A stretch of DNA of 64,000 nucleotides from an uncultured Syntrophaceae bacterium (GCA_964540715.1 CAZINZ010000002.1:9630-73629), one strand, 5' to 3'. Counted from the stretch's first letter, positions 1 through 38,548 are shown. The notes: generated from the letters alone by a model not told the origin. Made by a program: numbers and translations.

Positions 1-474
1 ACTGCAATCAAGGTGCATGAGGCTAAGCTCGCACTGGAGGATGGCTGCAAAGAGCTGGACATGGTAATCAATATCTCTGCCCTGCTCTCAGGGCGCTATC
101 AGTATGTGGAGGATGATATCCGGGCCGTAGTGGATGTTGCAGGTGGAAAGACCACAAAGGTGATTCTGGAAGTGCACTACCTCTCAGAGTTTGACATCAA
201 AAAAGGCTGTGAGTGCTGCATCAAAGCCGGAGCACATTTTGTAAAGACCGCCACCGGCCATGCTGAAAGTGGGGCAACCGTTGAAAACGTCGCTCTGATC
301 AAATCGTTTGTCGGTGATACTATCCAGGTCAAGGCTTCCGGAGGCGTTCGTGACCTGAAAACGCTCCTCGAAATGTACAAGCTCGGAGCGACAAGGTTCG
401 GCATTAGTGCGAGTTCGGCGTTAAACATAATAGAGGAGTGCGATTCTCTGCCTGACGGAGCGGTTAATCTATAG
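1..474 (+). CDS. deoC: deoxyribose-phosphate aldolase, C-terminal ~157 codons (5' end lies upstream of the window)
   Basis: Frame 1 is open from base 1. The product has the DeoC class I aldolase motifs HFVKTATG and QVKASGGVRD. Stop TAG at 472-474. Confidence 0.85.
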   Translation, partial: TAIKVHEAKLALEDGCKELDMVINISALLSGRYQYVEDDIRAVVDVAGGKTTKVILEVHYLSEFDIKKGCECCIKAGAHFVKTATGHAESGATVENVALIKSFVGDTIQVKASGGVRDLKTLLEMYKLGATRFGISASSALNIIEECDSLPDGAVNL

Positions 475-781
475 TGTCCGGTCAATTACTTGCCGAAGCT
501 TTGCATTCAGGTAGGGGAGAACCAGATTAATCAATCAGAGGAATCCCTGGAGAGGCCAGGTTCGGATGGATGCTGATGCTACGCCATCTGGCACTTAAAT
601 ATAAACGGGAGATTCAAGATGGTTGAACTGTTGCACCCGTTACTGTCAAATTTAAATCCTGTGACCGGTCTGATGGACCCGTACGACACGCACCGCCAGG
701 TAGGTCCGCCTTGGCGATATGCCCAATCACTACCTTAGTGGTCATCTGCACGGTTCTTCAGCCTTGAACCAGGACACCGTA

Positions 782-1243
782 CTATATGAGGTATTTGAAC
801 GCAGTGTCCCTGAAAAGGCCGGAGACATGATTTGATCTTCCCCCGAAAAAGTGAACACCCAGTTGAGCTTCCATAAACAGCCTACCAAAGTCAACAGGAG
901 AAACATATCCCAGATATGAATGTCTCCTGATCCTATTGTAGAATACCTCAATGTATTCGAAGATACTCTGACGAGCCTGTGATCGGGTCCTGTATTTTTC
1001 AAAGTATACGAGCTCTGTCTTTAATGTATGGAAGAAGCTTTCAGTAACAGCATTATCATAACAATTCCCTTTACCACTCATGCTCTATACAAAATTATGC
1101 TTTTCCAGAAGCTTTCTGAATTCATGACTTGCGTACTGGCTTCCCCGGTCTGAATGAAATATCAATCCCACCTGCGGTCTCTTTCGCTGTATGGCCATTG
1201 AAAGGGCTTCTGTCACTATATCCTTCGTTATTCTTTTTCTCAT
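782..1243 (-). pseudogene. IS3-family transposase OrfB remnant (C-terminal half of the DDE/rve domain only, with an in-frame stop)
   Basis: Minus-strand translation from 1243 reads [79 protein letters not shown]... HSDRGSQY and DNAxxESFFxxLKxE are the second-D and E regions of IS3 DDE transposases. In-frame TAG at 1085-1087. No OrfA, no N-terminal half and no recognisable left end. Confidence 0.8.
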
Positions 1244-1251
1244 GAAGGCAG

Positions 1252-1275
1252 TTCCGGGGACACCTTACTTAATTA
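1252..1275 (-). repeat. REP-like 24-nt repeat on the left flank of the RAYT gene (inverted relative to 1966-1989)
   Basis: Minus-strand reading is TAATTAAGTAAGGTGTCCCCGGAA. It is 21/24 identical to 1966-1989 and 20/24 identical to 2370-2393. Confidence 0.6.
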
Positions 1276-1310
1276 CTGACAAAAGCCAGCGCATTTGATT
1301 TATTTTTAGT

Positions 1311-1976
1311 ATGGCACGAATGGCAAGAGCAGTAGTTCCTGGAATCCCGCATCATGTAACACAGCGAGGAAACAGGCGGCAGCAGACATTTTTCAACAAT
1401 GAAGATTACCAATCCTATCTGGAGTTAATGTCGGAATGGTGTATGAAGTTTCGAGTGGAGACTTGGGCTTATTGTCTTATGCCAAACCACATTCACCTGA
1501 TTGTTGTACCTGAAACAAAGGATGGTCTAAATCAGGTAATTGGTGAAGCGCACGGACGATACACAAGGCGTATCAATTTTCGAGAAGGATGGCGGGGGCA
1601 TTTATGGCAGGGAAGGTTTTCATCTTTTATCATGGATGAGATACACCTCTTAGCATGTACGAGATATGTGGAATTGAATCCGGTCCGGGCAGGCTTGGTA
1701 AAGAACCCCGAAGAGTGGCACTGGAGTAGTGCAGGACCACACATGAAAGTTCAAGATGATATCCTTGTAAGAACAAAGTTATTGCTGGAAATGGTAAATA
1801 AACCATGGGATGATTTTTTGGACATTGATGCTCAGGAGCCGGAAATAGAGTTATTTAGAAAACACGAACGGACCGGGCGACCTTTAGGCGTTGATTCTTT
1901 TATTGGAACAATGGAACTACTTTTGGGCCGAAAGCTCAAACCTCAAAAACCTGGACCTAAAAAGAAAAATAAGTAA
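1311..1976 (+). CDS. REP-associated tyrosine transposase (RAYT) / IS200-like Y1 transposase family protein
   Basis: 221-aa ORF with an HUH motif in CLMPNHIHLIVVPE and a downstream Tyr in TRYVELNPVRAGL. The N-terminus (HHVTQRGNRRQQTFF) is typical of COG1943-type proteins. The gene is bracketed by inverted repeats. Confidence 0.8.
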   Translation: MARMARAVVPGIPHHVTQRGNRRQQTFFNNEDYQSYLELMSEWCMKFRVETWAYCLMPNHIHLIVVPETKDGLNQVIGEAHGRYTRRINFREGWRGHLWQGRFSSFIMDEIHLLACTRYVELNPVRAGLVKNPEEWHWSSAGPHMKVQDDILVRTKLLLEMVNKPWDDFLDIDAQEPEIELFRKHERTGRPLGVDSFIGTMELLLGRKLKPQKPGPKKKNK

Positions 1977-1989
1977 GGTGTCCCTGGAA
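1966..1989 (+). repeat. REP-like 24-nt repeat on the right flank of the RAYT gene
   Basis: AAAATAAGTAAGGTGTCCCTGGAA. It overlaps the RAYT stop codon. The inner 20 nt (1970-1989) are the reverse complement of 1252-1271 with one mismatch. Confidence 0.6.
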
Positions 1990-2287
1990 TTTGCCCGACA
2001 TATTAAGTGCTTCTGACAGTTAAAAATAATACTTGCAAAATAAAAAATATGTGCTACCGATAGAAGAGCAGGCAGGTACAAAGGATATACCGCAAAAACT
2101 CATTTTCCTATATTTCTTGTTTTCTACAGTTCCTCTGACAGCAGCCTATTTTTCCATCTCCTCCTGCTTACCCGTGGTCTGACCAAGAACGCTCAGTTTT
2201 AGAGGTAAGATTGCAATAGATGCTGGATTTAAACTGGAATATTTTGATGAAATCGGATTTTAAGAGACTTGATGCAGACGAATAAGG

Positions 2288-2336
2288 CCTGTCTGTGATG
2301 CCGTTGATGTATTCGGCATTACAGACCGGTTTTTTT
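2288..2336 (+). terminator. intrinsic terminator with no adjacent annotated gene
   Basis: Arm 2288-2303 (CCTGTCTGTGATGCCG) pairs with 2314-2329 (CGGCATTACAGACCGG) over 16 positions, with 1 mismatch and 1 G-U. The loop is 10 nt and is followed by T7 at 2330-2336. Confidence 0.6.
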
Positions 2337-2369
2337 GTGTAGCCAGACGGAATTCCATTGGATAGCAAA

Positions 2370-2393
2370 TAATTAAGTGTTGTGTCCCCAGAA
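2370..2393 (+). repeat. REP-like repeat copy at the left edge of the GC-rich segment
   Basis: TAATTAAGTGTTGTGTCCCCAGAA, 20/24 identical to the minus-strand reading of 1252-1275. Confidence 0.5.
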
Positions 2394-2592
2394 TTCCCCG
2401 CGCATTGAAAATTTCCCCATGCCCGTCGGGAAAAAGGTGATCATGCGGGCAATTCCGCAATGGCGGGAGATGGGCACGGAAGCTTTCATCGCGGTGGAGG
2501 AAGAGCGGTATCGCTGCCCACAGTGTGTCCAGGCGCTCTTTCGCGGCGCCAAACGTTGCCGAAACTGCGGCAAAAACGTCGACCGGGATTGA
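2377..2592 (+). CDS. small zinc-ribbon protein, possibly only the 3' part of a truncated gene
   Basis: 71-aa ORF ending ...EERYRCPQCVQALFRGAKRCRNCGKNV (CxxC-x12-CxxC). There is no convincing SD or start. The ORF begins inside the REP-like copy. Confidence 0.35.
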   Translation: MLCPQNSPRIENFPMPVGKKVIMRAIPQWREMGTEAFIAVEEERYRCPQCVQALFRGAKRCRNCGKNVDRD

Positions 2593-2618
2593 ACGCCGTT
2601 TCGAGTAAGGAGGAACAA

Positions 2619-3668
2619 ATGACATCTTCAAGCAGACCCATTCTGCCGACGCCGGACGCATTGGTGACCGGCGGACAATTCAATGTCGGTACGTACAAGG
2701 AACCGTTACGCACGGTCAATCCGCTGGACGCCGCCATCGGCTCGCGACCGCGTTGGTGGAAAAACCTGCGCCTGAAGGAGTGGCAGCACTTCGCGCTGGT
2801 CAACGATGATTATTACCTCAGCCTGGCGCTATTCAACGCCAAAACCATCGGCTTGGCACAGGTGTGCGTGTACGAGCGGCGCTACGGCAGCATCAAGTTT
2901 TACGAGCGTAAAACGCTCCCGTGGAAAATCGAACTGCCCACGGCGTTGTGGAACGATCGCGCCGCGTATCGGGGCAAGGGTTTTTCGATCGAGATCGAAA
3001 ACGGCCTCGAGCGCGGTCGTCACGATATCTCGTTCGAACTGGCCGCCCAGCGCGATCTGCCGGCGCTGAGCGGGCGTTTCACGTTGCTGGAGGACCTGAC
3101 GTCCTCCGAGCCGCTCGTGGTTTGCTTGCCGCTTAAACCCAAACGCGCGATGTATACGCATAAGTACGTCTGCCCTGTCAAGGGTGAAATGACGCTGGGC
3201 GACGAAACCGTGAGCTTTGCGCCGGCAGCGAGCTACGGCCTGATCGACATCCACAAAGGATACTATCCCTTCGTAATGAAATGGCACTGGGCCACCGGCG
3301 GCGGCTACAATGAAACCGGCCGTCTGTGCGGTTTCAACCTCACCGATAACCAGGTCAAGGACCAGGAAGCCTACAACGAAAATTGTCTCTGGATCGACGG
3401 CCGGTTGTTCCCGCTGCCCCCGGTGAAATTTAAATTCGTCCACAAGGACGTGATCAAACCCTGGCGCATCACCGACGCGGACGGGCTGGTGGATCTGACC
3501 TTCACGCCCGAAGTCGTGCGCACGATCGACATCAAAGCGCTGATCCTGCACAGTCGTTATCGCGGACCCTTCGGTTCCTTCTCCGGCCGATTGCAAACGG
3601 CGGACGGCGAGGAACTGAATCTCGACCGTTATTTCGGAATGTGCGAAGACTTCTACCTGCGCACTTGA
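2619..3668 (+). CDS. hypothetical protein, tentatively DUF2804 family
   Basis: SD TAAGGAGG at 2606-2613 lies 5 nt before ATG 2619 (MTSSSRPIL...), giving 349 aa. The family call is from memory of DUF2804-like features (LKEWQHFALV...) and needs an HMM check. The segment is clearly more GC-rich than its neighbours. Confidence 0.7.
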   Translation: MTSSSRPILPTPDALVTGGQFNVGTYKEPLRTVNPLDAAIGSRPRWWKNLRLKEWQHFALVNDDYYLSLALFNAKTIGLAQVCVYERRYGSIKFYERKTLPWKIELPTALWNDRAAYRGKGFSIEIENGLERGRHDISFELAAQRDLPALSGRFTLLEDLTSSEPLVVCLPLKPKRAMYTHKYVCPVKGEMTLGDETVSFAPAASYGLIDIHKGYYPFVMKWHWATGGGYNETGRLCGFNLTDNQVKDQEAYNENCLWIDGRLFPLPPVKFKFVHKDVIKPWRITDADGLVDLTFTPEVVRTIDIKALILHSRYRGPFGSFSGRLQTADGEELNLDRYFGMCEDFYLRT

Positions 3669-3863
3669 TCTCAAGGGGGACAGGTGGTCAAGTCTACGCT
3701 TGACCCTTGTTGCTGATTGCTAATTAAAACCTTCTATTGTGGTTGTAGGTTTTTAAAACAACAGTACAGGAAGTTATACGTAGCATATTCAGTATTCTTA
3801 AGATAATCCATGAAAACTTAAAAATACTTTTTTTGAAAGGTTAAAAGTGTACGTTCAAATCCA

Positions 3864-4742
3864 TCAATTCTCGAACCTGATCTTTCCCGTGTCTTTAAGA
3901 TTGTAGCCGGGGAGATTTTTGGACAAACTATTTATCCTGACCGGATCTATGTAATCCATGAATCCTTTTATAACGCTCGTGGAACACAGTTCACCGGGAA
4001 TAACAAGGTCAAACATCTCCTCCTTGAGCGGCAGGAAATCCAGACCCAGGGGATATGTAACATATTCTATGCCGAGGCCTACGTCCGCCTCACCGAAAAA
4101 GACCTTGAGGGCCACATCCATATGACTGTCGGCTTCTTCATTGAAACCGGTAACATCCCTTTCGTTTAAGCCCTTCTCTCTCATAAGATATTCCAGGAGG
4201 ACGCGTGTTCCGGACCCCTCGTTTCTGTTTATGAATCTCGCCCCTTTTTCTATAACATCTTCCAGTCCCCGCAGTCCCACGGGATTGCCCCTCTTCACAA
4301 TCAGTCCCTGTTTCCTGCGCCACAGGTTAACCACTACATATCGCTGTCCTGAGAGAACTCTGTCGAGAAAGGGAAGATTATATTCCCCCGTCTCCATGTC
4401 CAGAAGATGCGTACAGCATACCTGTCCTTTTTTCAGAGAGAGGGCGTGCACACCCCGTGAACTGCCCATTGATGAATAGAAAGCCACTGATCCGGGGAAG
4501 TTCTCATGGGAATAGAGAAGCACGAGTTTTTCCATAAGGACATCATTGCTTCCCACTATAAGGATATCCCTTTCCCTCTGCACATTCTCATCTATCCATC
4601 TCGTGACATGCCTCTCCGGAAAGAGCCACTTGCCGGCAATCCGCACATGGGGAATATTCCCCTCCTTTACAAGCTGATATACCTTCTTCTCATTCAACCT
4701 TAGAAGCCCGGCCAGCTCTTTTGTCGTAAGTAATTTATCCAT
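3864..4742 (-). CDS. HTH (excisionase/MerR-type) + periplasmic-binding-protein-like domain regulator, TunR-like candidate molybdate/tungstate-responsive regulator
   Basis: N-terminus is MDKLLTTKELAGLLRLNEKKVYQLVKEGNIPHVRIAGKWLF (HTH_17-type), and the C-terminal ~220 aa are PBP-like. The gene is divergent from wtpABC. The start was moved to ATG 4742. Confidence 0.7.
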   Translation of the reverse strand: MDKLLTTKELAGLLRLNEKKVYQLVKEGNIPHVRIAGKWLFPERHVTRWIDENVQRERDILIVGSNDVLMEKLVLLYSHENFPGSVAFYSSMGSSRGVHALSLKKGQVCCTHLLDMETGEYNLPFLDRVLSGQRYVVVNLWRRKQGLIVKRGNPVGLRGLEDVIEKGARFINRNEGSGTRVLLEYLMREKGLNERDVTGFNEEADSHMDVALKVFFGEADVGLGIEYVTYPLGLDFLPLKEEMFDLVIPGELCSTSVIKGFMDYIDPVRINSLSKNLPGYNLKDTGKIRFEN

Positions 4743-5918: not shown

Positions 5919-6704
5919 GTGACAAAAAAGGAACCTTTTTTCTGGGTTACCGTCTCCTGCGGCATCGTAATTATGGCTTTTATTCTACTGCCCCTCATCG
6001 AGATGATGACGGCGCCATCTTTCGCGATGCTGAAGGAAACAATCAAAGATAAGGACGTTGTCAGGTCGATCTGGCTGAGTATTTACACGGCCGGACTGGC
6101 AGCCCTGATTTCATTTGTCTTCGGGACACCACTCGCCTACGTGCTGGCCCGTACCGATTTCAGGGGTAAAAAGCTGATAGAGAGCATAATAGACCTGCCA
6201 ATAGTCATACCGCATCCTGTTGTCGGAATAGCGATACTCAGCGTTGCCGGAAAGAACCACTGGATAGGAGAATTGTTCAATCAGGTCGGCATACGCATCA
6301 TGGGAAGCGTTACCGGCATAGTTGTGGTGTTGACCTTCGTTGGAATGCCTTTTTACATAAATGCCGTCAAGAGCGGATTTGAGAGCATCTCCCCCAGACT
6401 GGAGAAGGTATCACGCAGTCTGGGGGCATCCATGTTCAGCACATTTTTCAGGATAACTTTCCCCCTTGCATGGCGCAGCATGCTTGTGGGTATTGTCATG
6501 TGCTCAGCCCGGGCGATAAGCGAGTTCGGCGCCGTGGTAATCGTCGCCTACCACCCCATGATTGCCCCGGTACTGATATATGAGCGATTCGAGGCATACG
6601 GCCTTAAATACTCTCAGCCTGTGGCGGTATGGCTGGTGTTTATCTGCCTGACACTTTTTCTGATTTTGAGAATACTCACTCTCCACGACAGGGAAAAGGC
6701 ATGA
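5919..6704 (+). CDS. wtpB: tungstate/molybdate ABC transporter permease
   Basis: Polytopic MetI-type permease of 261 aa with a GTG start directly after the wtpA stop. EAA-like loop SRSLGASMFSTFFRITFPLA. Confidence 0.8.
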   Translation: MTKKEPFFWVTVSCGIVIMAFILLPLIEMMTAPSFAMLKETIKDKDVVRSIWLSIYTAGLAALISFVFGTPLAYVLARTDFRGKKLIESIIDLPIVIPHPVVGIAILSVAGKNHWIGELFNQVGIRIMGSVTGIVVVLTFVGMPFYINAVKSGFESISPRLEKVSRSLGASMFSTFFRITFPLAWRSMLVGIVMCSARAISEFGAVVIVAYHPMIAPVLIYERFEAYGLKYSQPVAVWLVFICLTLFLILRILTLHDREKA

Positions 6705-9313: not shown

Positions 9314-10561
9314 GTGGGATTTTTTAAGATATTTTCAGGTAAAAGCCCCGAAGAATATGAACGAAGAGGAGACGGTTTCTTCGAGACCATGGAATACGGG
9401 GCAGCCAGGCTGGAATATGAAGCAGCTCTGACCAAGATAAATAAGGGAGGTCCGGACGATAGAGACCTTGAAAATAGCCTCCGGGAAAAAATGGTCAGAA
9501 GCAGTGAAGCACTGGCCCTGCAGCACAAACAAAACGGGAAATTACTGAGAGAATCCGGGAACTATGAAGGCGCGTCGGAACTGTTCCACCTTGCGCTGGA
9601 ACTGACAGAAGATTCTAAGCTTGCGGCCGGACTCGAAGAACTGCTCGGCATGACTCATAACGACATCGGAGATAATAACTTAGAGGCGCCCTGGTTTCAC
9701 ACCACGGAAGACAAAGCAGAAGACCAGGAATGGAACATACAGGAAGGCGAGTATTTTACAGCCCTGTGCGGCGCGCTACCCGACGAGACACAGGACGCCT
9801 ATCGGAGCTATGGCGACGCATTCAGGACCGGATATGTTGCACTGAACCAGGGCGAATACGAACTGGCCCTGACAAAATTATCGCAGGCTCTCGAGGAAAA
9901 TCGGACGGACAGTCTGATCCCCCTTGAACTCGCCACTACCTGTCTGAACATGAAAAGATACGAAGAGGCCCTCACTCTTCTTGAACGATTCATCGAGGAG
10001 CACCCACGTTCCACACACGGGTACCATATCTTATGCGAAACCCTCTGGACAATGAAAAATTTTGATGAGGCCGATGAACTGCTCTTTTCCTGTCCGGGAG
10101 ATCTTGCAGAGACAACGCCAATCCTGCATCTCAAAGGGGAATCGCTCTATCGGTCCGGAAGACATCGGGAGGCGGAGGCCTTCTATCTGGATATCCTTCA
10201 ATCTCACGACTGGGATGAGCATACTGCCCTGTCACTGGCGGCAACATATGAAGCGCTGGGGGAAAACGACGCGGCTCTTGAAATGTACAGCGAAATAATG
10301 GAAAAATGCACCGGCTGCGGCGTGAAGGTTGCACCCTTTATCAAACAGAAGTACGCGGATATATCGACGGAACTTGGTGATTATTCTGCGAAGATACTGG
10401 AAATATACCTCTCTCTGATTGAAGAAGACCCCGCGGGCAGGGAATATTACTTCAGAAAAGTGGCACACATATACACCTCCATGGGAAACGAGAGAGAAGC
10501 AAGGAGGTACCGATCGTTCGCCGATAACATGGGCGGACCATCCACAGAATCCGATTATTAA
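9314..10561 (+). CDS. tetratricopeptide-repeat protein
   Basis: 415 aa with multiple TPR-like A..Y/F..AL helical repeats. The GTG start immediately follows the upstream TGA. Confidence 0.6.
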   Translation: MGFFKIFSGKSPEEYERRGDGFFETMEYGAARLEYEAALTKINKGGPDDRDLENSLREKMVRSSEALALQHKQNGKLLRESGNYEGASELFHLALELTEDSKLAAGLEELLGMTHNDIGDNNLEAPWFHTTEDKAEDQEWNIQEGEYFTALCGALPDETQDAYRSYGDAFRTGYVALNQGEYELALTKLSQALEENRTDSLIPLELATTCLNMKRYEEALTLLERFIEEHPRSTHGYHILCETLWTMKNFDEADELLFSCPGDLAETTPILHLKGESLYRSGRHREAEAFYLDILQSHDWDEHTALSLAATYEALGENDAALEMYSEIMEKCTGCGVKVAPFIKQKYADISTELGDYSAKILEIYLSLIEEDPAGREYYFRKVAHIYTSMGNEREARRYRSFADNMGGPSTESDY

Positions 10562-10564
10562 AAA

Positions 10565-11344
10565 ATGAAAATTAAACTTTTGCTGATAGACGCACTCAAC
10601 CTCATCCGCCGCGTGTATGCCGCACAACCTGGAGAAGACGGACCTAATCGCGTGGATGACGCCTTAAAAACAGGCGTCCACTCCCTTCGGCGTGCCCTGC
10701 GTGAATGCCGGCCCACCCACGCGATTTGTGTCTTTGACAGCCACGAACCGAGCTGGCGCCATGACCTGTATCCCGGTTACAAGGCCGGACGGCCGCCAAT
10801 GCCCGAGGATCTCAATTCGCGGATGAACCGGTTCAAGGACGCGTTTTCGGAGATCGGAGTCCGCTCTGTGTGTTTCCCCACACTCGAAGCGGATGACATT
10901 ATTGCCACACTTGCCGGAAAGATAGCATCCCGAAGTGGCAAGGTTGTCATACTTTCAACAGACAGGATGTTTCTGCAGCTTGTTTCAGATTTGATAGTGG
11001 TGCGCGACCATTTCAATAAACTGGATATGGATCAGGCATACGTAAAGGAAAAACTGCACGTACAGCCGGATCAACTGGTGGATTTCTTCGCGCTGACGGG
11101 ATACGCCACCAACAACATACCCGGAGTCCACACAGCAGGTCCAAAGACAGCCGCCCGGCTGCTGAACGAACTGGAAAGCCTGGATAATATTCTGTCGGTT
11201 GCCTATACCATCAAGGGCAAGTTGGGCGAGATGTTATGCAAACATGCCGGAGAGGCGCGCCTCTCCCAATCCCTGGTTCGCCTGAAAGATGATATAGAAC
11301 TGGGGCTTAATCTGAAATCATTTCGATACACGACGGAACCCTGA
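10565..11344 (+). CDS. xni: flap endonuclease Xni / 5'-3' exonuclease family
   Basis: MKIKLLLIDALNLIRRVY, YPGYKAGRPPMPEDL, LEADDIIATLA, and an H3TH-like GVHTAGPKTAARLL. Confidence 0.8.
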   Translation: MKIKLLLIDALNLIRRVYAAQPGEDGPNRVDDALKTGVHSLRRALRECRPTHAICVFDSHEPSWRHDLYPGYKAGRPPMPEDLNSRMNRFKDAFSEIGVRSVCFPTLEADDIIATLAGKIASRSGKVVILSTDRMFLQLVSDLIVVRDHFNKLDMDQAYVKEKLHVQPDQLVDFFALTGYATNNIPGVHTAGPKTAARLLNELESLDNILSVAYTIKGKLGEMLCKHAGEARLSQSLVRLKDDIELGLNLKSFRYTTEP

Positions 11345-11498
11345 TGCTAAATGCTGAAGATTCTGGTTCTTGAGTAGAATAGCGCTAATTTTATCGTGTC
11401 ACTCGCGCCAAAAAAGGGTATAGTACGCGGCACTGTCGTGATAGGCTTTATCGAGAAGAAAACGGGGGTTTAACCTGAACTTTCGGGAGAGAGATACC

Positions 11499-12647
11499 AT
11501 GAATTTCAAAATGGACCGAACTTCAAGAAAATCTTTTCAAGGTTCATGCAGGGTGTTCCTGGTCACTTCCGGTGTTGCCCTGTTAATATTATGCCTGTCA
11601 GCAACAACTGTCGCTTCAGGGGATGCCATGTCTAAGTTTACCCTCCTCGTAGAACAAGACAGTGGATTATCCGCAGCGGAAAAGGAACAATGGACATCCA
11701 CTACCATGGAAGCGTTTCGGGACAAGGAATTCACTTTTGACTACAGTCGCCTGATCTATGGGATTCTTTCACAAGGAAAATTCGATGAAGTCACAATGGA
11801 TAAGACTATTCAGGTGGCTCTTCATTCAACCATGGCTATGGAACAGGGAGCGCCCGAAGAGGAAGTTGGTGAGCTTGCCCTATTCGCGTTTTCAACAAAT
11901 CTTCTTCCCGAAGAAATCCGGCTGTACGCAGTCACAACAAAGAAGTGCAGCGCCGCCGGAGTACCGGTTTACGTTACGCGGGAAATGATACGTCATGCCA
12001 AGGAAGAACTCTGGCCCGAGAATACCTTTACTACTATAATGAATGGTCTGACAGAGTCCGCCAGGCGCAACATGGCTACCGAAAAAATCGCTCTCTTCAT
12101 GCTTATTTCAGTAGCACAAAAGCTTGGAACTCCGGAACAGATCGTCCGGGACGCGCTTGAAGATGCCCGACAACGTAAATCCGCCCCACTGCAGAAAGAG
12201 CGAACCATACCGACGACCCCAACACCTGCCGTTACTCCAGCACCCTTAACCCCAAGGGTAGCCCTTAACTTTGACGCATTCAGACAGTCTGTCGAATCAT
12301 TCCTCGGCACGCCCTATAGATGGGGAGGAAATAGTCGAATGGGCGTCGATTGCTCCGGGTTCACCAGTCTTGTCATGTATGAAAACGGCTACCGGGTCCC
12401 CCGCGTGAGCGGTAATCAGGCAAGGGTGGGGGCACCTGTTTACAAAAACCAGCTTCAGTTAGGCGATCTTGTGTTTTTTGACACAAAGGGTAGTGGAAGA
12501 ATCACCCATGTGGGTTTTTACCTTGGAGGAAACCTTATGGCACACGCCTCTTCGAGCAAAGGAGTGACCATAGTTTTTTTCAGTAACAGGTATTTCCAGT
12601 CACGTTATGTAACAGCCCGCCGGATTATAAGATACGTAAACAGGTAA
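11499..12647 (+). CDS. NlpC/P60 (C40) family peptidoglycan peptidase with N-terminal signal/anchor
   Basis: The C-terminal domain reads GTPYRWGGNSRMGVDCSGF ... ITHVGFYLGG (catalytic Cys and His). Confidence 0.8.
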   Translation: MNFKMDRTSRKSFQGSCRVFLVTSGVALLILCLSATTVASGDAMSKFTLLVEQDSGLSAAEKEQWTSTTMEAFRDKEFTFDYSRLIYGILSQGKFDEVTMDKTIQVALHSTMAMEQGAPEEEVGELALFAFSTNLLPEEIRLYAVTTKKCSAAGVPVYVTREMIRHAKEELWPENTFTTIMNGLTESARRNMATEKIALFMLISVAQKLGTPEQIVRDALEDARQRKSAPLQKERTIPTTPTPAVTPAPLTPRVALNFDAFRQSVESFLGTPYRWGGNSRMGVDCSGFTSLVMYENGYRVPRVSGNQARVGAPVYKNQLQLGDLVFFDTKGSGRITHVGFYLGGNLMAHASSSKGVTIVFFSNRYFQSRYVTARRIIRYVNR

Positions 12648-12842
12648 TATATTCGTTGCTGAGGGTGCCGTATGCGTGTAGCTACCTTTTTTCTTTTGGA
12701 GACAGATACGATTTCCCTCGAATTCACAAACCAGTTCACAAAACATTTTGACACAGACAAGAAATCGTGCAAAAAGATAAATTCTATTCAGTTCTCAGGT
12801 TGGCAGTGAATTGTCGGGTGGATTAGCCCACTGGAAAACATC

Positions 12843-13730
12843 ATGAATAAAAATGATAATCAAGGCATGAAAGACGACATCAAGGTGACCTTCTGGGGTG
12901 TTCGTGGAACATTGCCGGTTCCAGGCCTGAACTCAGTGCTGTACGGGGGAAATACTTCATGCGTAAGCGTTGAATTCCCAAACGATAATTTCTTCATCTT
13001 CGATGCCGGAACTGGGATCAAGGAACTGTCAAATTACTTTATATCTAAACACGCATGCACAAAAGCAACAGTTTTTATTTCGCATCCTCACTGGGATCAT
13101 ATAAACGGCATCCCCTTCTTTGCGCCACTGTATACAAAGGGAAACGAGTTTAAAATCTATGGCCCGCCTAATGGAGGCATGTCCATGCGGAAATTGATAT
13201 CAGGGCAAATGGACGGTGTATATTTTCCAATAAACATAAAGGGATTCGAGGCGAAAGTTTCTTTCCACAATCTCGGGGAACAAACGTTCACTATAAACAC
13301 ACTGCAGATACAAACAATGTTCTTGAATCACCCGGGGCAATGTCTTGGTTATCGTCTGAATTACAAAGACAAGTCCGTCTGTTATATCACCGATAACGAA
13401 ATTTACCCGCAGTCCAGCAGACTCTACAACGAGAGTTATGTAAACAAACTGAAAGACTTTGTCTCAGATACGGATGTATTAATAACTGACTGTACCTACA
13501 CGGATGACGAATATGGAGGGAAAATCGGATGGGGACATTCATCCGTAAGTCAGGTAGCGCAACTGGCCGACATGGCCGCAGTAAAATCCCTGTTCCTGTT
13601 TCACCATGACCCTGATCAAACTGACACTGACATAGACAACAAACTGAAGATGGCCCGGGCCATCTTGGAAATGAAGGGCTCCTCCACCAAATGCATTGCA
13701 CCGAAAGAGAGAGAATCTTTCGACGTATAG
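12843..13730 (+). CDS. MBL-fold metallo-hydrolase
   Basis: IKVTFWGVRGTLPVPG and the HxHxDH motif ISHPHWDHINGIP; 295 aa. Confidence 0.7.
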   Translation: MNKNDNQGMKDDIKVTFWGVRGTLPVPGLNSVLYGGNTSCVSVEFPNDNFFIFDAGTGIKELSNYFISKHACTKATVFISHPHWDHINGIPFFAPLYTKGNEFKIYGPPNGGMSMRKLISGQMDGVYFPINIKGFEAKVSFHNLGEQTFTINTLQIQTMFLNHPGQCLGYRLNYKDKSVCYITDNEIYPQSSRLYNESYVNKLKDFVSDTDVLITDCTYTDDEYGGKIGWGHSSVSQVAQLADMAAVKSLFLFHHDPDQTDTDIDNKLKMARAILEMKGSSTKCIAPKERESFDV

Positions 13731-13776
13731 TGGATAAGACTGGGACTGAGGCGTTTCATCACAACACTCAAGATAG

Positions 13777-14136
13777 ATGGCAGAACCCCTTAAAAACCAA
13801 CCGATTAGCGGGATCAACAACACAAAGCGGATGACATGTGACCCGCCGCAGAATGAGCGACCCCAAAAGTTCAGTCTCAGATTCTGGATAGGAATAATCC
13901 TCCTGACAACCAATCAACCGCTTGGCTGGGTGGCCCTGCTTGTATGTAGTGCCCTGGCCATAGATGAACACAGCGAATTCATCTTCTTCTTTGGGATAGC
14001 GTTATATGCTCTGACCTGGGGAATGTTGGGACTGGGTGCATTACTGGCTGGACCGGAAGGTCTCCGTTATTCTCACCTTCTGTTGACAAAGTCATGGCGG
14101 TATATTGTTCGTCATCTTAAGATACGGCAGAGGTAA
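13777..14136 (+). CDS. hypothetical membrane protein
   Basis: 119-aa ORF with 2-3 hydrophobic segments (FWIGIILLTT, WVALLVCSALAI, FFFGIALYALTWGMLGLGALLAG). No recognisable family. Confidence 0.35.
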   Translation: MAEPLKNQPISGINNTKRMTCDPPQNERPQKFSLRFWIGIILLTTNQPLGWVALLVCSALAIDEHSEFIFFFGIALYALTWGMLGLGALLAGPEGLRYSHLLLTKSWRYIVRHLKIRQR

Positions 14137-14347
14137 AGAGACAGGGCAACATTTCACCATACCATAGCCTGTCACCACCAGTTTCGTGATCTACTCCAGG
14201 GTTTTCAAGTCTCTTCAGCTTTTCGCAATTGACTTCGCATGATATTCTGGATCTATGATGCTGTTACTTATTTTCGGACGGCCTCCTGACCCCGGTAACC
14301 GCGATAAGTGTGTTAGCGAAATTTGTCTGCAAAAAATTTCTACCTTA

Positions 14348-15523
14348 CTAATCCGCCTGTCTCCTCAGAAAGGCAGGTGTTTCAAAGTCGGGATTATCAT
14401 CATCGAGTATCGTCCCCATACTTACGGCAGCAGGTTTATCTCCTGTCTTATCGTCTCTGTTTCTCATAAAAGTTGGCCTGGCAATGTTTCCCTTTCTCCT
14501 GGTGTTGCCTGGTTGCAAGGTGGAAATCTCAGCCGTCATCTCACAATTACGCTCATTTGAATCGAATCCCGTTGCAATTACGGTAATCCGTACCTCGTCT
14601 CCCATACTGTCATCAACAACCGTTCCGAATATGATATTTGCGTCTTCGTGCGCCTCGGCCTGTATCAGTGATGACGCCTCATTTACCTCAAAAAGTGTCA
14701 TCTCGGACCCGCCTGTTATGTTGAGAAGTATCCCTCGAGCCCCCTGAATTGAATTATCTTCGAGCAGGGGAGAGGATATCGCCTTCTGTGCGGCTTCAAT
14801 CGCCCTGTTGTCACCACTGGCGATACCGGTACCCATAAGTGCCAGTCCCATCTCGGACATGATGTTCTTTACGTCAGCGAAATCGAGATTGATCAGACCG
14901 GGGACCATGATAAGGTCGGAAATCCCCTTAACTCCATTGTACAGGATATCATCGGCCTTTTTGAAGGCATCCGGCAAAGTCATGTTTCTGCCGCTGATAC
15001 TCAGAAGCCGTTGATTCGGAACCACAATGAGGGTATCAACCACCTTTCTTAATTCGGCAAGACCCTGTTCCGCCTGTTTAGTTCGTTTCTTGCCCTCAAA
15101 TTGAAACGGTTTTGTGACTACCGCGACAGTCAGCGCTCCAAGCTCCTTTGCAATTTCAGCTACAATTGGCGCGCCGCCAGTCCCTGTGCCTCCTCCAAGA
15201 CCTGCTGTCACAAAAACCATGTCCGCTCCATCCAGGATTTCCTTCAGCCTGTCCTGAGATTCGATGGCTGCCTTTTTACCCACTTCAGGGTCAGAACCGG
15301 CACCGAGACCCTTTGTAATCTCTGCCCCGAGTTGTACCTTTATTGAGGCACTTGACGCTGTCATAGCCTGTGAATCTGTATTTGCCACAATAAAATCCAC
15401 CCCGGTGAGTTGATAAGCAATCATCATATTGACGGCATTCCCTCCGCCGCCTCCGACACCTATTACCTTGACCCTGGCGGCATTGTTGTTATCACCGCAT
15501 TTTACCAACTCAAACATAACCAT
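14348..15523 (-). CDS. ftsZ: cell division protein FtsZ
   Basis: Tubulin signature [16 protein letters not shown], and the C-terminal peptide [13 protein letters not shown]. Confidence 0.97.
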
Positions 15524-15535
15524 TCCCCCTCTTTC

Positions 15536-16762
15536 TTAAAAGAAATCGTTGAACCATTTTTTAATTCTCGTCTTTAGCCCTCGTAATATTTTTCTCTCGC
15601 TTCTATCCATTTTAAAGTCAGAATAATCGTTACTTCCACGAACAACCAGTCCCACTCCCGTCGCATACATCGGATGATTAATCACATCTGTAATACCTCC
15701 GACACCAGCAGGACACCCCTTTCTTACCGGTGAATTAAATATCTGCTCCGCCAGTTCAGTTATTCCTTCAAGCATTGCGGTCCCCCCCGTAAGCACAACA
15801 CCTCCGGCGAGTAGATCATCATACCCTGCTTTAACAATCTCCCTGAGCGCAAGACTGAGAATCTCTTCCACACGCGGCTCGATGATCTCCCCCAGCACCT
15901 GTCTTGAAATATTTCTCGGATTTCTTCCACCCACACTTGGAACCTCAATGATTTCATTTTGTGGAATCATTTTAGTATATGCGCAGCCATATTTTATCTT
16001 TATCTTTTCAGCTTCCTGAACCGGGGTCCGCAAGCCCACAGAGATATCACTTGTTACATAATTACCCCCCAGAGGCAGGACATGAGTGTGCTGAATACTT
16101 CCCTCAGCAAATACCGCTATGTCAGAAGTGCCTCCACCGATATCGATCAGGGCAACACCGAGTTCCTTTTCATCCTGACTGAGGACCGTCTCGCTTGAGG
16201 CCATTTGTTCCAGGATAACGTCATTGACATCCAGACCCACACGATTAATCGACTTTATTATGTTCTGTACGGATGTAATTGCAGCAGTAACAACATGGAC
16301 CTTGGCCTCAAGCCTGACACCCGACATCCCGATTGGTTCTTTTACTCCATCCTGATCGTCAACCATATAGTACTGTGGCAATATATGAATCACTCTCCTA
16401 TCCAGAGGAATGGCAACCGCCCTGGCCGCTTCGAGGGCTCTCTTTACATCATATTCATCAACTTCACCGCCCTTAACCGCCACAATGCCATAGCTGTTCA
16501 ACCCCTGTATGTGACTTCCGGCAATACCTGCGTAAACCGACCTTATTTCACATCCCGACATCAATTCCGCTTCTTCCACGGCCCTCTTTATTGAATCAAC
16601 GGTACTGTCAATATTAACTACCACCCCTTTTCGAAGACCGATTGACCGATGAGTGCCAATCCCGATTATATCTATTCCCACGTTCGTAATTTTTCCGACG
16701 ATGGCACATACCTTGGTCGTTCCTATATCCAGCCCAACTATGATATCTTCATTTCTTGCCAT
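15536..16762 (-). CDS. ftsA: cell division protein FtsA
   Basis: Actin-like ATPase: IVGLDIGTTKVCAIVG, DIGGGTSDIAVF. Located between ftsQ and ftsZ. Confidence 0.95.
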   Translation of the reverse strand: MARNEDIIVGLDIGTTKVCAIVGKITNVGIDIIGIGTHRSIGLRKGVVVNIDSTVDSIKRAVEEAELMSGCEIRSVYAGIAGSHIQGLNSYGIVAVKGGEVDEYDVKRALEAARAVAIPLDRRVIHILPQYYMVDDQDGVKEPIGMSGVRLEAKVHVVTAAITSVQNIIKSINRVGLDVNDVILEQMASSETVLSQDEKELGVALIDIGGGTSDIAVFAEGSIQHTHVLPLGGNYVTSDISVGLRTPVQEAEKIKIKYGCAYTKMIPQNEIIEVPSVGGRNPRNISRQVLGEIIEPRVEEILSLALREIVKAGYDDLLAGGVVLTGGTAMLEGITELAEQIFNSPVRKGCPAGVGGITDVINHPMYATGVGLVVRGSNDYSDFKMDRSERKILRGLKTRIKKWFNDFF

Positions 16763-16781
16763 TAGCTTTTCCTTTCCGACA

Positions 16782-17633
16782 TCATATCTCCATCTTGCGA
16801 TCTTTTGTCAGGTTCCTCGGACCGAAAACATTTCCACGCTCGACTGCAATCCTGCTGCAATCCACAAGATCAATACTCAAAAACTTCCTGTCCAAACCCC
16901 TTTGCTCCAAATCGGCCATAACCCTCTTAAGCCTTTTTAACTTGGCTTCGTAGTCCCCAAAACCAATATTCAAAAACAAATGGTTGTCCGTAAAGACAGA
17001 AAAGGCATATACATCATCTGCATAAATCTCGGACACATTCCATTCCATTGGGAAATTATCTCTTTTAGAAAGACAGTTCAGAAATTCAAAGGCATTCTCC
17101 AGCAGGCCTTTCCTTACGCCGCCATTTCTGTAGCTCCCTGTAATAACAGGGGCATCCACCATATCGCCGGTCTCAAATCTTTTGAACACCACTCCGTTAC
17201 GACCCACAACGTACATTTCCTTGTCATTTTTAAGGAGAGCGACGGCATCTCTCTCAACAATTTCAATCACCAGCCTGTCGGGAAATTCCCTCCCGACGGA
17301 GGCATTCCTGATCCACGGATCATTTTCTATCTCCCGCGCCATCTTTCTGAGATTTACAGTCAGGATATTCATGGAGGATGATATCCCTGCCAGCTCAATA
17401 ACTTTCTCCCTGCTGATCTTGTCGCAACCCCTGACAATAGTATTTTTCAACCTGAAATAATCCGCGCACATGGCAAAATTATACGCATATACCATTAAAG
17501 TAGCTAACAGACCTGCAACGCTGATAATTGCAAGCATCTTGAAGATTTCACCCGGCATCACCCCTGATCTGTGTTTCAATCTGTTCTTCCTTGCCGAACG
17601 GGTTGTTTTGAAGGGCTTCCTCAAAGTAGTCAC
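16782..17633 (-). CDS. ftsQ: cell division protein FtsQ (POTRA domain)
   Basis: Single TM (MLAIISVAGLLATLMVYAY) followed by a POTRA/FtsQ-type domain. 4-nt overlap with the murB stop. Confidence 0.85.
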   Translation of the reverse strand: MTTLRKPFKTTRSARKNRLKHRSGVMPGEIFKMLAIISVAGLLATLMVYAYNFAMCADYFRLKNTIVRGCDKISREKVIELAGISSSMNILTVNLRKMAREIENDPWIRNASVGREFPDRLVIEIVERDAVALLKNDKEMYVVGRNGVVFKRFETGDMVDAPVITGSYRNGGVRKGLLENAFEFLNCLSKRDNFPMEWNVSEIYADDVYAFSVFTDNHLFLNIGFGDYEAKLKRLKRVMADLEQRGLDRKFLSIDLVDCSRIAVERGNVFGPRNLTKDRKMEI

Positions 17634-18583
17634 TCCCCTATGATCTTTATTTCTGTTTCAAGAGCAATTCCCCTCTCATCGAGGACCCTCTTTTGAGCCA
17701 GGTCAATCAGGGCAATAATATCCCCTGCTTTCGCATTGCCCAGATTCACAATGAAATTTCCATGTTTCCCGGATATTTCCGCATCCCCTACCCTGAGGCC
17801 TTTAAGCCCGGCTTCTTCAATCATTTTTCCTGCCGGATAATCGGGAGGATTTTTGAATACTGATCCCGCGCTCCGGTACGCGAGAGGATGCTTCTCCCTG
17901 CGCGCCGCACTAATGTCCGAAATCTTTCCCTGGATTTCATTTCTGCTTCCACTTACAAGGTAAAACTCGGCGCCGGTAATAATTGCCCCCGCGGGAAGGA
18001 CAAGATTCCTGTACTCAAACGACAGGGCCTCTCTTTCTATCTCTCTTATCTTCGCGCCGTTATCGAGAATGGAGACTGATTTCACTACATCCTTCATCTC
18101 CCTCCCCCACGCGCCGGCATTCATTTTTACGGCGCCGCCGACACTGCCCGGTATTCCGGCACAGAATTCCAGCCCGGCAAGCGCTTCTCTGGCCGAAAAA
18201 ACGACAATGTCGGAAAGTAAAACCCCTGCCTGAGCGTAAACGCATACTCCACCGGCATATTCTTCTTTTAAGGTAGATCCACTGGGAAGATTTCCTCCCC
18301 CTATCTCCATTCTTCGCAGTGCCTCAAGCGAGATCAGCGCTCCTCTGTAACCACCATCTCTCACGATAAGATTCGAACAGTTCCCTACGGGCATAAAGGG
18401 AACATCTTCTTTATGTAAAAGTGTCACCAGATCTTTCAGTTCACTCACAGTATCAGGAACGATCAGCGCGTCAGCCCTTCCCCCGACGCCCATGGAGGTA
18501 TGCATGGACATTGGTTCATCAAAAAGCACCCTCCCGGTGACCGTGCTGACTATTTCGTTTCTTAACTGTTTGTCTGCAATCAT
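17630..18583 (-). CDS. murB: UDP-N-acetylenolpyruvoylglucosamine reductase
   Basis: FAD-binding PCMH domain (MGVGGRADALIVP, PVGNCSNLIVRDGG) and C-terminal SAGSVFKNP. The start was moved to ATG 18583, which overlaps the murC stop (ATGA). Confidence 0.9.
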   Translation of the reverse strand: MIADKQLRNEIVSTVTGRVLFDEPMSMHTSMGVGGRADALIVPDTVSELKDLVTLLHKEDVPFMPVGNCSNLIVRDGGYRGALISLEALRRMEIGGGNLPSGSTLKEEYAGGVCVYAQAGVLLSDIVVFSAREALAGLEFCAGIPGSVGGAVKMNAGAWGREMKDVVKSVSILDNGAKIREIEREALSFEYRNLVLPAGAIITGAEFYLVSGSRNEIQGKISDISAARREKHPLAYRSAGSVFKNPPDYPAGKMIEEAGLKGLRVGDAEISGKHGNFIVNLGNAKAGDIIALIDLAQKRVLDERGIALETEIKIIGE

Positions 18584-36850: not shown

Positions 36851-37555
36851 CTAATACACCCGCGCTCCGAATATGGCAGTCCCTAAGCGCACTATAGTTG
36901 AGCCTTCCTCAATGGCAACCACATAATCACCGGACATCCCCATTGAAAGCTCGCGCATTTCGACACCTTTTATATCCTCCGCGATAATCTTATCCCTCAG
37001 TTCCCGGAGTGCTACAAAGAAAGGCCTGGCATCGTCGGGGTCATCAAACCATGGTGGCATCGTCATAAGTCCCCGGATCAAAAGATTGTCAAGCAGCGAA
37101 ATTTGCCTTATCAGATCCGGTGCCTCATCCGGAGAAATACCGTTCTTGCTCTCTTCGCCACTCACATTTACCTCGACAAGGATGTCGGTCACACATCCTG
37201 CAACTGCTGATCTCTTGTCAAGCTCCACTGCGAGGGCCATCCGGTCAACGGAATGAACCATATCAAAGAGTCGGACCGCGTATTTCGCCTTATTGGACTG
37301 CAAATGGCCTATCATATGCCATTTCACATCTGCATCCATCTTTTCAATCTTTCTCTTTGCCTCCTGGATATAATTCTCACCCATTAAATCCACCCCGGCA
37401 TCTATGGCCTCCCGTATCCTGTCATCATCAACAGTCTTGGTTACAGCCATAAGCCTAACCTCGGAAGGCTCCCTCCCCGACCTCAGGGCCGCCTCGGCAA
37501 TTTTTTCTCTTATTTCCCTTATACTGTCCTCTATAACTGACATCATTTTCTCCAT
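36851..37555 (-). CDS. yggS: YggS family pyridoxal-phosphate homeostasis protein
   Basis: VRLMAVTKT (PLP Lys), HMIGHLQSNK, and ELSMGMSGDY. The start is chosen among Met codons at 37555, 37546 and 37543. Confidence 0.85.
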   Translation of the reverse strand: MEKMMSVIEDSIREIREKIAEAALRSGREPSEVRLMAVTKTVDDDRIREAIDAGVDLMGENYIQEAKRKIEKMDADVKWHMIGHLQSNKAKYAVRLFDMVHSVDRMALAVELDKRSAVAGCVTDILVEVNVSGEESKNGISPDEAPDLIRQISLLDNLLIRGLMTMPPWFDDPDDARPFFVALRELRDKIIAEDIKGVEMRELSMGMSGDYVVAIEEGSTIVRLGTAIFGARVY

Positions 37556-37775
37556 TCTGTTTACTTCTTCTCGTTTTATGCCGCGTATAGTATTGCACAG
37601 AACATGGTATATGCAAGAATGTTTTTTGAGCCGACCTCTTCGCCCAGAATCCACCGTCTAACAAAAGCTGTTGATATTTGGCTTGGTTGTGTTATGTGGA
37701 GCGGGTATCCGGGGACTATTATTCTTACTATGCAGGCCATAAGCAACAAATGTTATGGTTGAAATAAATTGTCAA

Positions 37776-37798
37776 TAATTTAGTATTGTGTCCCCTAA
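37776..37798 (+). repeat. REP-like repeat copy in the AT-rich islet
   Basis: TAATTTAGTATTGTGTCCCCTAA aligns to 2370-2393 (TAATTAAGTGTTGTGTCCCCAGAA) with about 20 matches. A partial inverted core TCCGGGGAC lies at 37708-37716. Confidence 0.45.
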
Positions 37799-38065
37799 TT
37801 CGTCTCAGTATTTGAGATCGACGCTATTGAACTTTAGTCCACGTCGTTTTATCAAGAGTTGATTCAGTGAAACGATTTGTCCAGGTTGTTGACGTAAGCC
37901 AGCCAAATGTCAAGTAAAAAAAGTGACTTAATATACTGATTTTATAACTTATTCACATGCAAAAACCCAACCGGAAATTACTGATTTTGACTAGTTATGC
38001 CTTAATTCGTTTGGCATGGAATAAGTTAAAAATCTCTCAGCGGCTGGTTAGCTGTGGAAAGACCT

Positions 38066-38548
38066 CTACCTTACACCGCCTGTATTGAGAAACTGCTGCC
38101 ACAACCCCTTAATACTAATACCGTCAGCATTGTACCAATGTGCTGGGCCTCGCACAGAATCGCTACTAAAACCAACTTTTTTTAATAGCTCCTTTGCGAG
38201 CTCACTCATCGAAAAGTGTTCATTATTCCAAATTAGATTCTTGCCTGAAATTTTAGCCTCGTACCCTTCAATCTTATTCCCCTGATAGTCATATAAATAT
38301 AGAACTTGCCCTTGATTGAGAAGGCCGGATTGAATCAGTTTGGGCAAATGAGTTTTTGGCTGTTTCTTGTTCTTTCTTATTAATTTGTCGGGTTGTGCGG
38401 GTTTCGGTACCGGGCTTTGGGGTTCCTTGGCCTTTTGGCTGTCGCCAAGCAAAAGCCTTCTGAGAGTCAGGTTTGGGGTTTCTACAAATGGGATAGCCTT
38501 GCTTTGAAGGTATCCAAACAATTCGTCATCGATTTCTATGGTTTGCAT
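38066..38548 (-). CDS. SeqA-N-terminal-like (RHH) + RAMA-domain protein, restriction-modification-associated type
   Basis: The N-terminus MQTIEIDDELFGYLQSKAIPFVETPNLTLRRLLLG resembles the SeqA N-terminal domain (MKTIEVDDELYSYI...). A Lys/Pro-rich linker follows. The C-terminal ~90 aa (GLLNQGQVLYL...FSMSELAKELL...VRGPAHWYNADG) fit the RAMA pattern. Family calls are from memory. Confidence 0.55.
   Translation of the reverse strand: MQTIEIDDELFGYLQSKAIPFVETPNLTLRRLLLGDSQKAKEPQSPVPKPAQPDKLIRKNKKQPKTHLPKLIQSGLLNQGQVLYLYDYQGNKIEGYEAKISGKNLIWNNEHFSMSELAKELLKKVGFSSDSVRGPAHWYNADGISIKGLWQQFLNTGGVR

Follow-up and report, generated by a model that had tools for sequence, protein, structure and literature searches.

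The 64,000-nucleotide (nt) stretch of DNA analysed here, referred to as the window, comes from an uncultured Syntrophaceae bacterium (GCA_964540715.1, CAZINZ010000002.1:9630-73629). Near its beginning lie a remnant of an IS3-family transposase gene (782-1243, minus strand), a gene for a Y1-type transposase (1311-1976, plus strand) bracketed by inverted repeats (1247-1275 and 1966-1995), an AT-rich spacer (1996-2369) and a third, diverged repeat copy (2370-2398, plus strand). We consider it very probable that positions 1247-1995 constitute one intact TIRtron of 749 nt, formed by a TIRYT gene and its cognate terminal inverted repeats (TIRs) of approximately 29 nt. TIRtrons and TIRYTs were described by Di Nocera, De Gregorio & Rocco (2013, PMC3733652) as genes similar to those of REP-associated tyrosine transposases (RAYTs) and flanked by TIRs. 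The class to which the unit belongs is the TIRtron, not the REPtron, in which a RAYT gene is flanked by repetitive extragenic palindromic sequences (REPs), and the unit is an ordinary further member of this known and little-studied family.

The TIRYT gene and its terminal inverted repeats

The open reading frame (ORF) at 1311-1976 encodes a protein of 221 residues with the motifs PNHIHLIV and TRYVELNP, as an earlier note on this DNA had read it. The HUH motif (H60-I-H62) and the catalytic tyrosine (Y119, within YVELNP) are both intact. The protein matches the Pfam family Y1_Tnp (E 3e-15) and scores 78 bits with the NCBIfam RAYT model REP_Tyr_transpos, just below its cut-off of 80, and 23 bits with transpos_IS200, against a cut-off of 55. 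The nearest solved structure by sequence is E. coli TnpAREP (4ER8, E 3.4e-4), with ISDra2 TnpA ranking behind. In a Foldseek search with an AlphaFold (AF2) model of the protein (pLDDT 87), 4ER8 is again the top match (E 1.9e-7, TM-score 0.73 on the target), and IS608 and ISDra2 are weaker. These results bear out the earlier assignment to Y1 proteins of RAYT-like type: the product is predicted to be a Y1 HUH enzyme, closer to RAYTs than to IS200 transposases.

Geobacter GSU2396, a named TIRYT included in the supplementary alignment of the TIRYT paper, is 60% identical to the window protein over its full length (220 residues, E 4e-98), whereas E. coli RAYT is 26% identical over 89 residues only. 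The window protein further contains NHIH, WQ (in WQGRF), YVELNP and WSS, which are the motifs of TnpA-Y1 subclass 2.1 (NH[VIYF]H, W[EQ], Y[IV]ELNP and SS; Quentin et al. 2018, PMC6006769). This subclass corresponds to RAYT Group 1 of Bertels et al. (2017, PMC5581495) and was equated by Quentin et al. with the TIRYTs of Di Nocera et al.; its members have an extra C-terminal tail and no REPs, and are prevalent in Epsilon-, Beta- and Deltaproteobacteria (PMC6006769). The window protein resembles them in the HUH, W[EQ] and Y[IV]ELNP motifs, in the SS following the core, in the C-terminal tail, in the prevalence in Deltaproteobacteria and in a low copy number with occasional duplicates. It differs from them in length (221 residues against a subclass median of 238) and in the tail of 81 residues: the last 88 residues have no Pfam match at E up to 10, including none to DnaA_C or a helix-turn-helix, although residues 141-205 are helical in the AlphaFold model. 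An exact-sequence look-up of the protein returned no record. At least 8000 homologues were found, and the best 120 of these are 72-99% identical and derive mostly from Desulfobacterales, both metagenome bins and isolates.

The left repeat, TIR-L (1247-1275, minus strand), is composed of an outer tail (1247-1255) and the core GGGGACACCTTACTTAATTA at 1256-1275, as read on the plus strand. It is followed by a leader of 35 nt (1276-1310, plus strand) with a -35-like hexamer, CTGACA, at 1277-1282, which presumably has a promoter function. The right repeat, TIR-R1 (1966-1995, plus strand), reads AAAATAAGTAAGGTGTCCCTGGAATTTGCC and contains the TAA stop codon of the gene at 1974-1976. Comparison of the 24-nt segments given in the earlier note (the minus strand of 1252-1275, TAATTAAGTAAGGTGTCCCCGGAA, and the plus strand of 1966-1989, AAAATAAGTAAGGTGTCCCTGGAA) reproduces its description, with 21 of 24 positions identical, a single difference in the inner 20 nt and the right copy lying over the stop codon. 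Repeat finding lengthens the inverted repeat to approximately 29 nt with one indel. Each repeat consists of the core AATTAAGTAAGGTGTCCCC and a tail of the NGAAYT type, and TIR-R1 carries CCCT where CCCC is expected. In the 64-kb window, the 12-mer proposed in the earlier note occurs four times with at most one mismatch (1.02 expected; 0 of 100 shuffles reached four), and the 19-nt core occurs four times with at most four mismatches (0.16 expected). Since these counts are above expectation and the same pair surrounds homologous genes in other genomes, the repeat pair is not a product of chance.

The repeats had been called REP-like, which does not hold. They lack the GT[AG]G tag, and the single-strand folding suggested as a check gives, for three window copies with their flanks, energies no better than those of shuffled sequences (z +0.5 to +1.6). 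The segment GGGGACAC at 1256-1263 fits the motif GGGGWSAS, which is shared by many TIRtron repeats (PMC3733652), and the repeats are TIRs of this TIRtron type (PMC3733652; PMC6006769). A search of Rfam with positions 1-4000 of the window, at E up to 1, found no family.

The assignment to TIRtrons rests on the identity of 60% to GSU2396, the subclass 2.1 motifs and the GGGGWSAS-type repeat. The likeness to a TIRtron such as that of Geobacter sulfurreducens GSU2396 covers the RAYT-like Y1 protein with a long C-terminal extension, the long non-REP TIRs and the position of the 3′ repeat over the gene end, an overlap described for some members of the family (PMC3733652). It also covers the occurrence of the repeat in some genomes as single copies, dimers or groups, as published for TIRtron families (PMC3733652). 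The window differs by its extra diverged right repeat 374 nt outward and by the abutting IS3 fragment, and otherwise in nothing essential. Elsewhere in the same genome, within the 64 kb, there is one further copy of the repeat, located at 37.8 kb on a gene stub. The REP/REPIN-type configuration seen in the earlier note is therefore correct in that cognate inverted repeats flank the gene, and incorrect in that these are terminal inverted repeats and not REPs.

Conservation and dispersal of the repeat in other genomes

The same anatomy is observed at homologous loci, which are numbered here with the prefix L. Upstream of the gene, an outer tail is followed by GGGGACACCTTACTTAATTA and then at once by TTGACA, the hexamer that most homologues have where the window has CTGACA. 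Between the end of the left core and the ATG there are 35 nt in the window, in both copies of L002, in L005/L014, L116, L036 and L098, and in a fossil unit of the window described below; in more distant homologues the distance is 35-39 nt. The 20-nt core is identical to that of the window in L002 (both copies), L004 and L098, and one position off in L005/L014, L116, L036 and L089. Downstream, the stop codon lies inside AAGTAAGGTGTCCCC, which precedes the inverted tail, and its position within the AAGTAAGG core is the same in the homologues. This geometry of repeat and gene is kept down to approximately 44-61% protein identity. Homologues at 31-44% identity have diverged repeats, for example GGGGACATAACACATAATT, so that repeat and protein co-vary at depth.

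In L003 (Desulforapulum autotrophicum HRM2, CP001087), four repeat copies are located upstream of the gene and six downstream in the opposite orientation. The arrays of this locus (9520-9730 and 10700-10880) are interleaved with a minisatellite, AGATCTGG, and a second motif, GTTCCCGGAATGTCCCCCGGAATG, lies nearer the gene than the arrays.

We scanned a species-representative genome collection for the exact 17-mer TTAAGTAAGGTGTCCCC and obtained at least 120 stretches; copy numbers per genome are lower bounds. The matches come from Desulfobacterota, Planctomycetota, Nitrospirota, Alphaproteobacteria, Bacteroidota, Elusimicrobia, Acidobacteriota and others, cultured isolates included. At the two positions immediately 5′ of the 17-mer, 139 and 131 of the 147 copies listed have A, and the six bases on its 3′ side conform to NGAATT, giving the full consensus (G)AATTAAGTAAGGTGTCCCC-NGAATT. 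As the flanks are conserved, the matches are true copies and not chance occurrences. In approximately 100 of the 120 listed loci, the stored stretch contains no homologous gene. The copies lie in long open stretches in 24% of cases, compared with 83% of random positions (p 2e-53), a comparison affected by the motif, which on its own interrupts three of the six frames. The earlier proposal to count the repeat has thus a divided outcome: the four copies in the 64 kb are all tied to the unit or to the fossil, and copies elsewhere are dispersed and mostly intergenic. The 17-mer is absent from viral contigs, and all plasmid-borne relatives of the protein are below 45% identity. Rfam has no family for six loci with doublets or arrays, and a literature search with the motif string returned only unrelated primer sequences.

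Many of the copies are paired. Within 120 nt, 57 of the 147 listed copies have a head-to-head partner, one has a tail-to-tail partner and 18 have a direct one; 73 are solo. The inverted pairing looked for in the earlier note is thus present elsewhere, in head-to-head form and for part of the copies. Exact doublets form perfect stems of 21-31 bp, in one case of 46 bp, and the folding energies of doublets taken from other genomes are -24 to -34 kcal/mol (z -8.6 to -12.8). Given that single copies do not fold and doublets do, the repeat units are not palindromes, and a hairpin arises only from two paired units.

Outward ladders accompany 43 of 142 copies: the tail hexamer, NGAATT or a lineage variant, recurs one to five times, and each recurrence follows 0-8 nt taken from the core's 3′ end; examples among L015-L134 are L134 (153-300), L086 (approximately 5930-6030), L063 (2314-2420) and L037 (approximately 6540-6620). 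We rejected the idea that the tails are target-site duplications: they are inverted and not direct, and are therefore part of the repeat.

Mobility, alternative readings and a possible mechanism

Direct evidence of movement is found in L002, a Syntrophales genome bin with two copies of the gene 1.9 kb apart. The copies share a block of 744 nt with four substitutions (99.5% identity) that starts and ends exactly at the repeat tails; the flanks are unrelated and no target duplication is present. The exact boundaries of this duplication indicate that a whole TIRtron was copied as a unit, and the TIRtron unit can move. The statement of the earlier note that the transposase is domesticated and not autonomous is consequently too strong. 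At the same time, one homologue is fixed in its chromosomal position: 18 contigs were read, and the 10 contexts shown all place it at the same site. This mixture of duplication and fixed sites matches the description of Group 1 as the most IS-like RAYT group (PMC5581495). In the genome of the window, the unit gives the impression of a resident whose right end, with CCCT in TIR-R1, may be in decay. The L002 region (11032-17694) is rich in other mobile DNA, with an IS3 element, a Mutator-type transposase, methyltransferase and restriction-like genes and a group II intron reverse transcriptase.

The alternative that survives best is a fully domesticated host gene that moves no DNA, its repeats being operator, regulatory or chromosome-processing sites and the dispersed copies binding sites. 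The fixed site just mentioned is compatible with it, as are the high protein conservation of 73-98% over many Desulfobacterales, the overlap of the left repeat with a -35-like hexamer at a constant 35 nt from the ATG, the absence of close relatives from plasmids and viral contigs, and the mostly housekeeping-like behaviour of RAYT groups (Bertels et al., PMC5581495). We nevertheless hold it to be unlikely in view of the L002 duplication of a whole unit with exact repeat boundaries and unrelated flanks, the existence of fossil and truncated units, and the repeat arrays and reiterated tails. Furthermore, the exact core is distributed patchily over many phyla, which implies that it has moved horizontally.

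Less probable still, to the point of being a slim chance, is a classical REPtron, that is, a domesticated RAYT gene flanked by REPs that spread as REPINs. REPtrons such as E. coli TnpAREP (4ER8) with its REP/BIME sequences, or those associated with Pseudomonas REPINs, share with the window unit the catalytic fold, the Y---NP tyrosine motif and inverted cognate repeats around the gene; the protein is close to TnpAREP, and in both systems the locus is mostly chromosomal and of low copy number and gene-less inverted doublets form hairpins, so that the head-to-head doublets of other genomes resemble REPINs. However, canonical RAYT loci (subclasses 2.2, 2.4 and 2.5) have a 5′ GT[AG]G at the base of a hairpin and many intergenic copies, neither of which the window unit has. 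The TIRtron repeat is devoid of this tag and of self-complementarity, forming a hairpin only when two units pair, and the failure of single copies to fold largely refutes the REPtron. The repeat is also not dispersed within the 64 kb, and its core is common to many phyla, whereas REPs are species-specific. In addition, the gene-bearing unit is duplicable as a whole, the RAYT model scores below its cut-off, the full-length similarity is to the named TIRYT and not to E. coli RAYT, and REP-like sequences are not reported for subclass 2.1 (PMC6006769).

An autonomous IS200/IS605-type insertion sequence without tnpB, suggested by the Y1_Tnp match, the compact unit and the adjacent insertion sequence remnant in a low-GC patch, has a negligible probability and is refuted by the motifs and the end structure, since TnpA of that type (subclass 1.1; IS608, ISDra2) shares with the window protein, judging from motifs and fold, the HUH/Y1 single-strand DNA chemistry, but has Y---Q instead of Y---NP, approximately 150 residues instead of 221, subterminal hairpins that are missing at the unit, no inverted repeats at its ends (PMC6006769), high copy number and often tnpB, and since the IS200 model scores far below its cut-off. 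In the syntenic contig, the lack of a tnpB partner stated in the earlier note holds for the 10 kb to each side, and it likewise holds for all fetched contexts of homologues.

For the TIRtron, the following mechanism can be proposed. By analogy with TnpAREP and IS608 TnpA, the Y1 enzyme would act on single-stranded DNA. Two inverted repeats on one strand would pair into a stem of 21-31 bp, yielding a hairpin in the case of doublets and a panhandle around the gene, and this stem would be the structured substrate recognized by the enzyme. Cutting and rejoining near the tail end of the stem could then move or copy either the whole gene-bearing unit or, in trans, gene-less doublets. As the left repeat lies directly on the -35-like hexamer, binding of the enzyme there probably also represses the promoter of the adjacent gene.

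Several observations weigh against the TIRtron as read here or against this mechanism. The proposed hairpin is impossible for the solo copies, and the loops of the doublets vary even inside one genome, which a simple model of copying the doublet does not predict. Solo copies, differing loops and tail ladders are all left outside the mechanism. A consensus promoter scan makes no call at the -35-like hexamer of the leader, and apart from the unit and one fossil, the 64 kb contain no dispersed copies of the repeat. Finally, the literature searched contains no experimental work on TIRYTs, and we infer binding, cleavage site and strand specificity.

A broader proposal, which we put forward tentatively and consider rather doubtful, is that one TIRYT clade and its nearly invariant 25-nt repeat, (G)AATTAAGTAAGGTGTCCCC-NGAATT, may be common to at least 10 phyla and may record an undescribed mode of Y1 transposition. 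The features that may point to such a mode are the perfect hairpins formed only head-to-head and with variable loops, the direct arrays and the tail ladders (approximately 30% of copies). In this mode the substrate would be a hairpin made of two non-palindromic units, with cleavage and rejoining at the tail.

For the window itself, the analysis changes little beyond correcting the label, which is TIRtron instead of REPtron or IS200, and adding a decayed second copy. TIRYTs are the second-largest branch of the Y1 superfamily, and for one large clade of it the data define the repeat, the fixed geometry of gene and repeat, the hairpin-forming doublets and an example of whole-unit movement. They also supply oligonucleotide substrates and organisms, among which Geobacter sulfurreducens and Desulforapulum autotrophicum HRM2 are suitable, for the study of a Y1 enzyme that works with inverted repeats instead of palindromes.

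Fossil unit and surroundings of the TIRtron

The four repeat copies of the window are divided between the gene, with three, and a fossil left end of a second TIRtron at 37687-37801 (minus strand). The fossil is composed of the tail GAATTA, the core GGGGACACAATACTAAATTA (37795-37776), TTGACA, a 35-nt leader, an ATG at 37740 and approximately 18 codons (MACIVRIIVPGYPLHITQ), after which the similarity ends. Its geometry is exactly that of the intact unit. It is located upstream of a gene with the Pfam domain Ala_racemase_N (36851-37654) and near a gene for a SeqA_N/RAMA protein (38066-38548).

The repeat copy of the fossil (37776-37801, minus strand) shares the variant TTGTGTCCCC with the third copy at the gene, R2 (2370-2398, plus strand; TAATTAAGTGTTGTGTCCCCAGAATTCCC), and this variant resembles the TIR of the L086 type. 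R2 has the same orientation as TIR-R1 and is 79% complementary to TIR-L. R2 is probably what remains of a second TIR lineage, which may be that of the fossil, and within the window this lineage appears to survive only in these two places.

To the left of the unit, the frame at 782-1243 (minus strand) encodes the C-terminal half of an IS3-family OrfB (residues 141-258 of 267) and abuts TIR-L. It matches Pfam rve, rve_2 and rve_3 and positions 251-368 of the 369 of the NCBIfam profile transpos_IS3. The in-frame TAG at 1085-1087 and the end of the frame at 1243, 9 nt from the left 24-nt repeat copy, are as given in the earlier note. Being a partial OrfB with an internal stop, 782-1243 is an IS3 remnant and not an element. 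The IS3 homology ceases approximately 4-10 nt from the outer edge of the left repeat, and neither orfA, the N-terminal half of orfB nor any other IS3 piece is present in the whole window, including the region beyond the right repeats. The fragment is truncated at the repeat edge, as noted in the suggestion that the unit inserted into, or recombined with, an older insertion sequence, but since the missing half is found nowhere in the window, the data do not establish that the unit simply inserted into an intact IS3. A truncated transposase at the left repeat is also not a regular pattern: among approximately 14 distinct loci it is seen only in the window and in L004 (Desulfonema ishimotonii), where a fragment of an IS110-type transposase (9410-9865; 151 residues, Transposase_20 domain only) adjoins the left repeat.

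The GC content is 0.38-0.44 over the IS3 remnant, the TIRtron and the spacer (750-2400), whereas it is approximately 0.50 on the upstream side and rises to 0.55-0.61 over the downstream DUF2804 gene, which suggests that this patch is foreign or decaying DNA. The AT-rich non-coding spacer (1996-2369, 374 nt) separates TIR-R1 from the third copy. Among the fetched loci, this spacer and the stretch 480-790 match only the window and the syntenic contig L001, and neither has similarity to the TIRYT protein. The spacer contains a strong terminator-like hairpin with a U7 run at 2286-2336 (plus strand; -28.1 kcal/mol, z -5.9). Together with a weak promoter-like match at 2013-2041, this hairpin could bound an unannotated transcript of approximately 290 nt. 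Further to the right, a small zinc-ribbon-like ORF (2377-2592, plus strand) has weak DZR matches below the Pfam cut-offs; its listed GTG start lies inside the third repeat copy, and the true start is probably further downstream.

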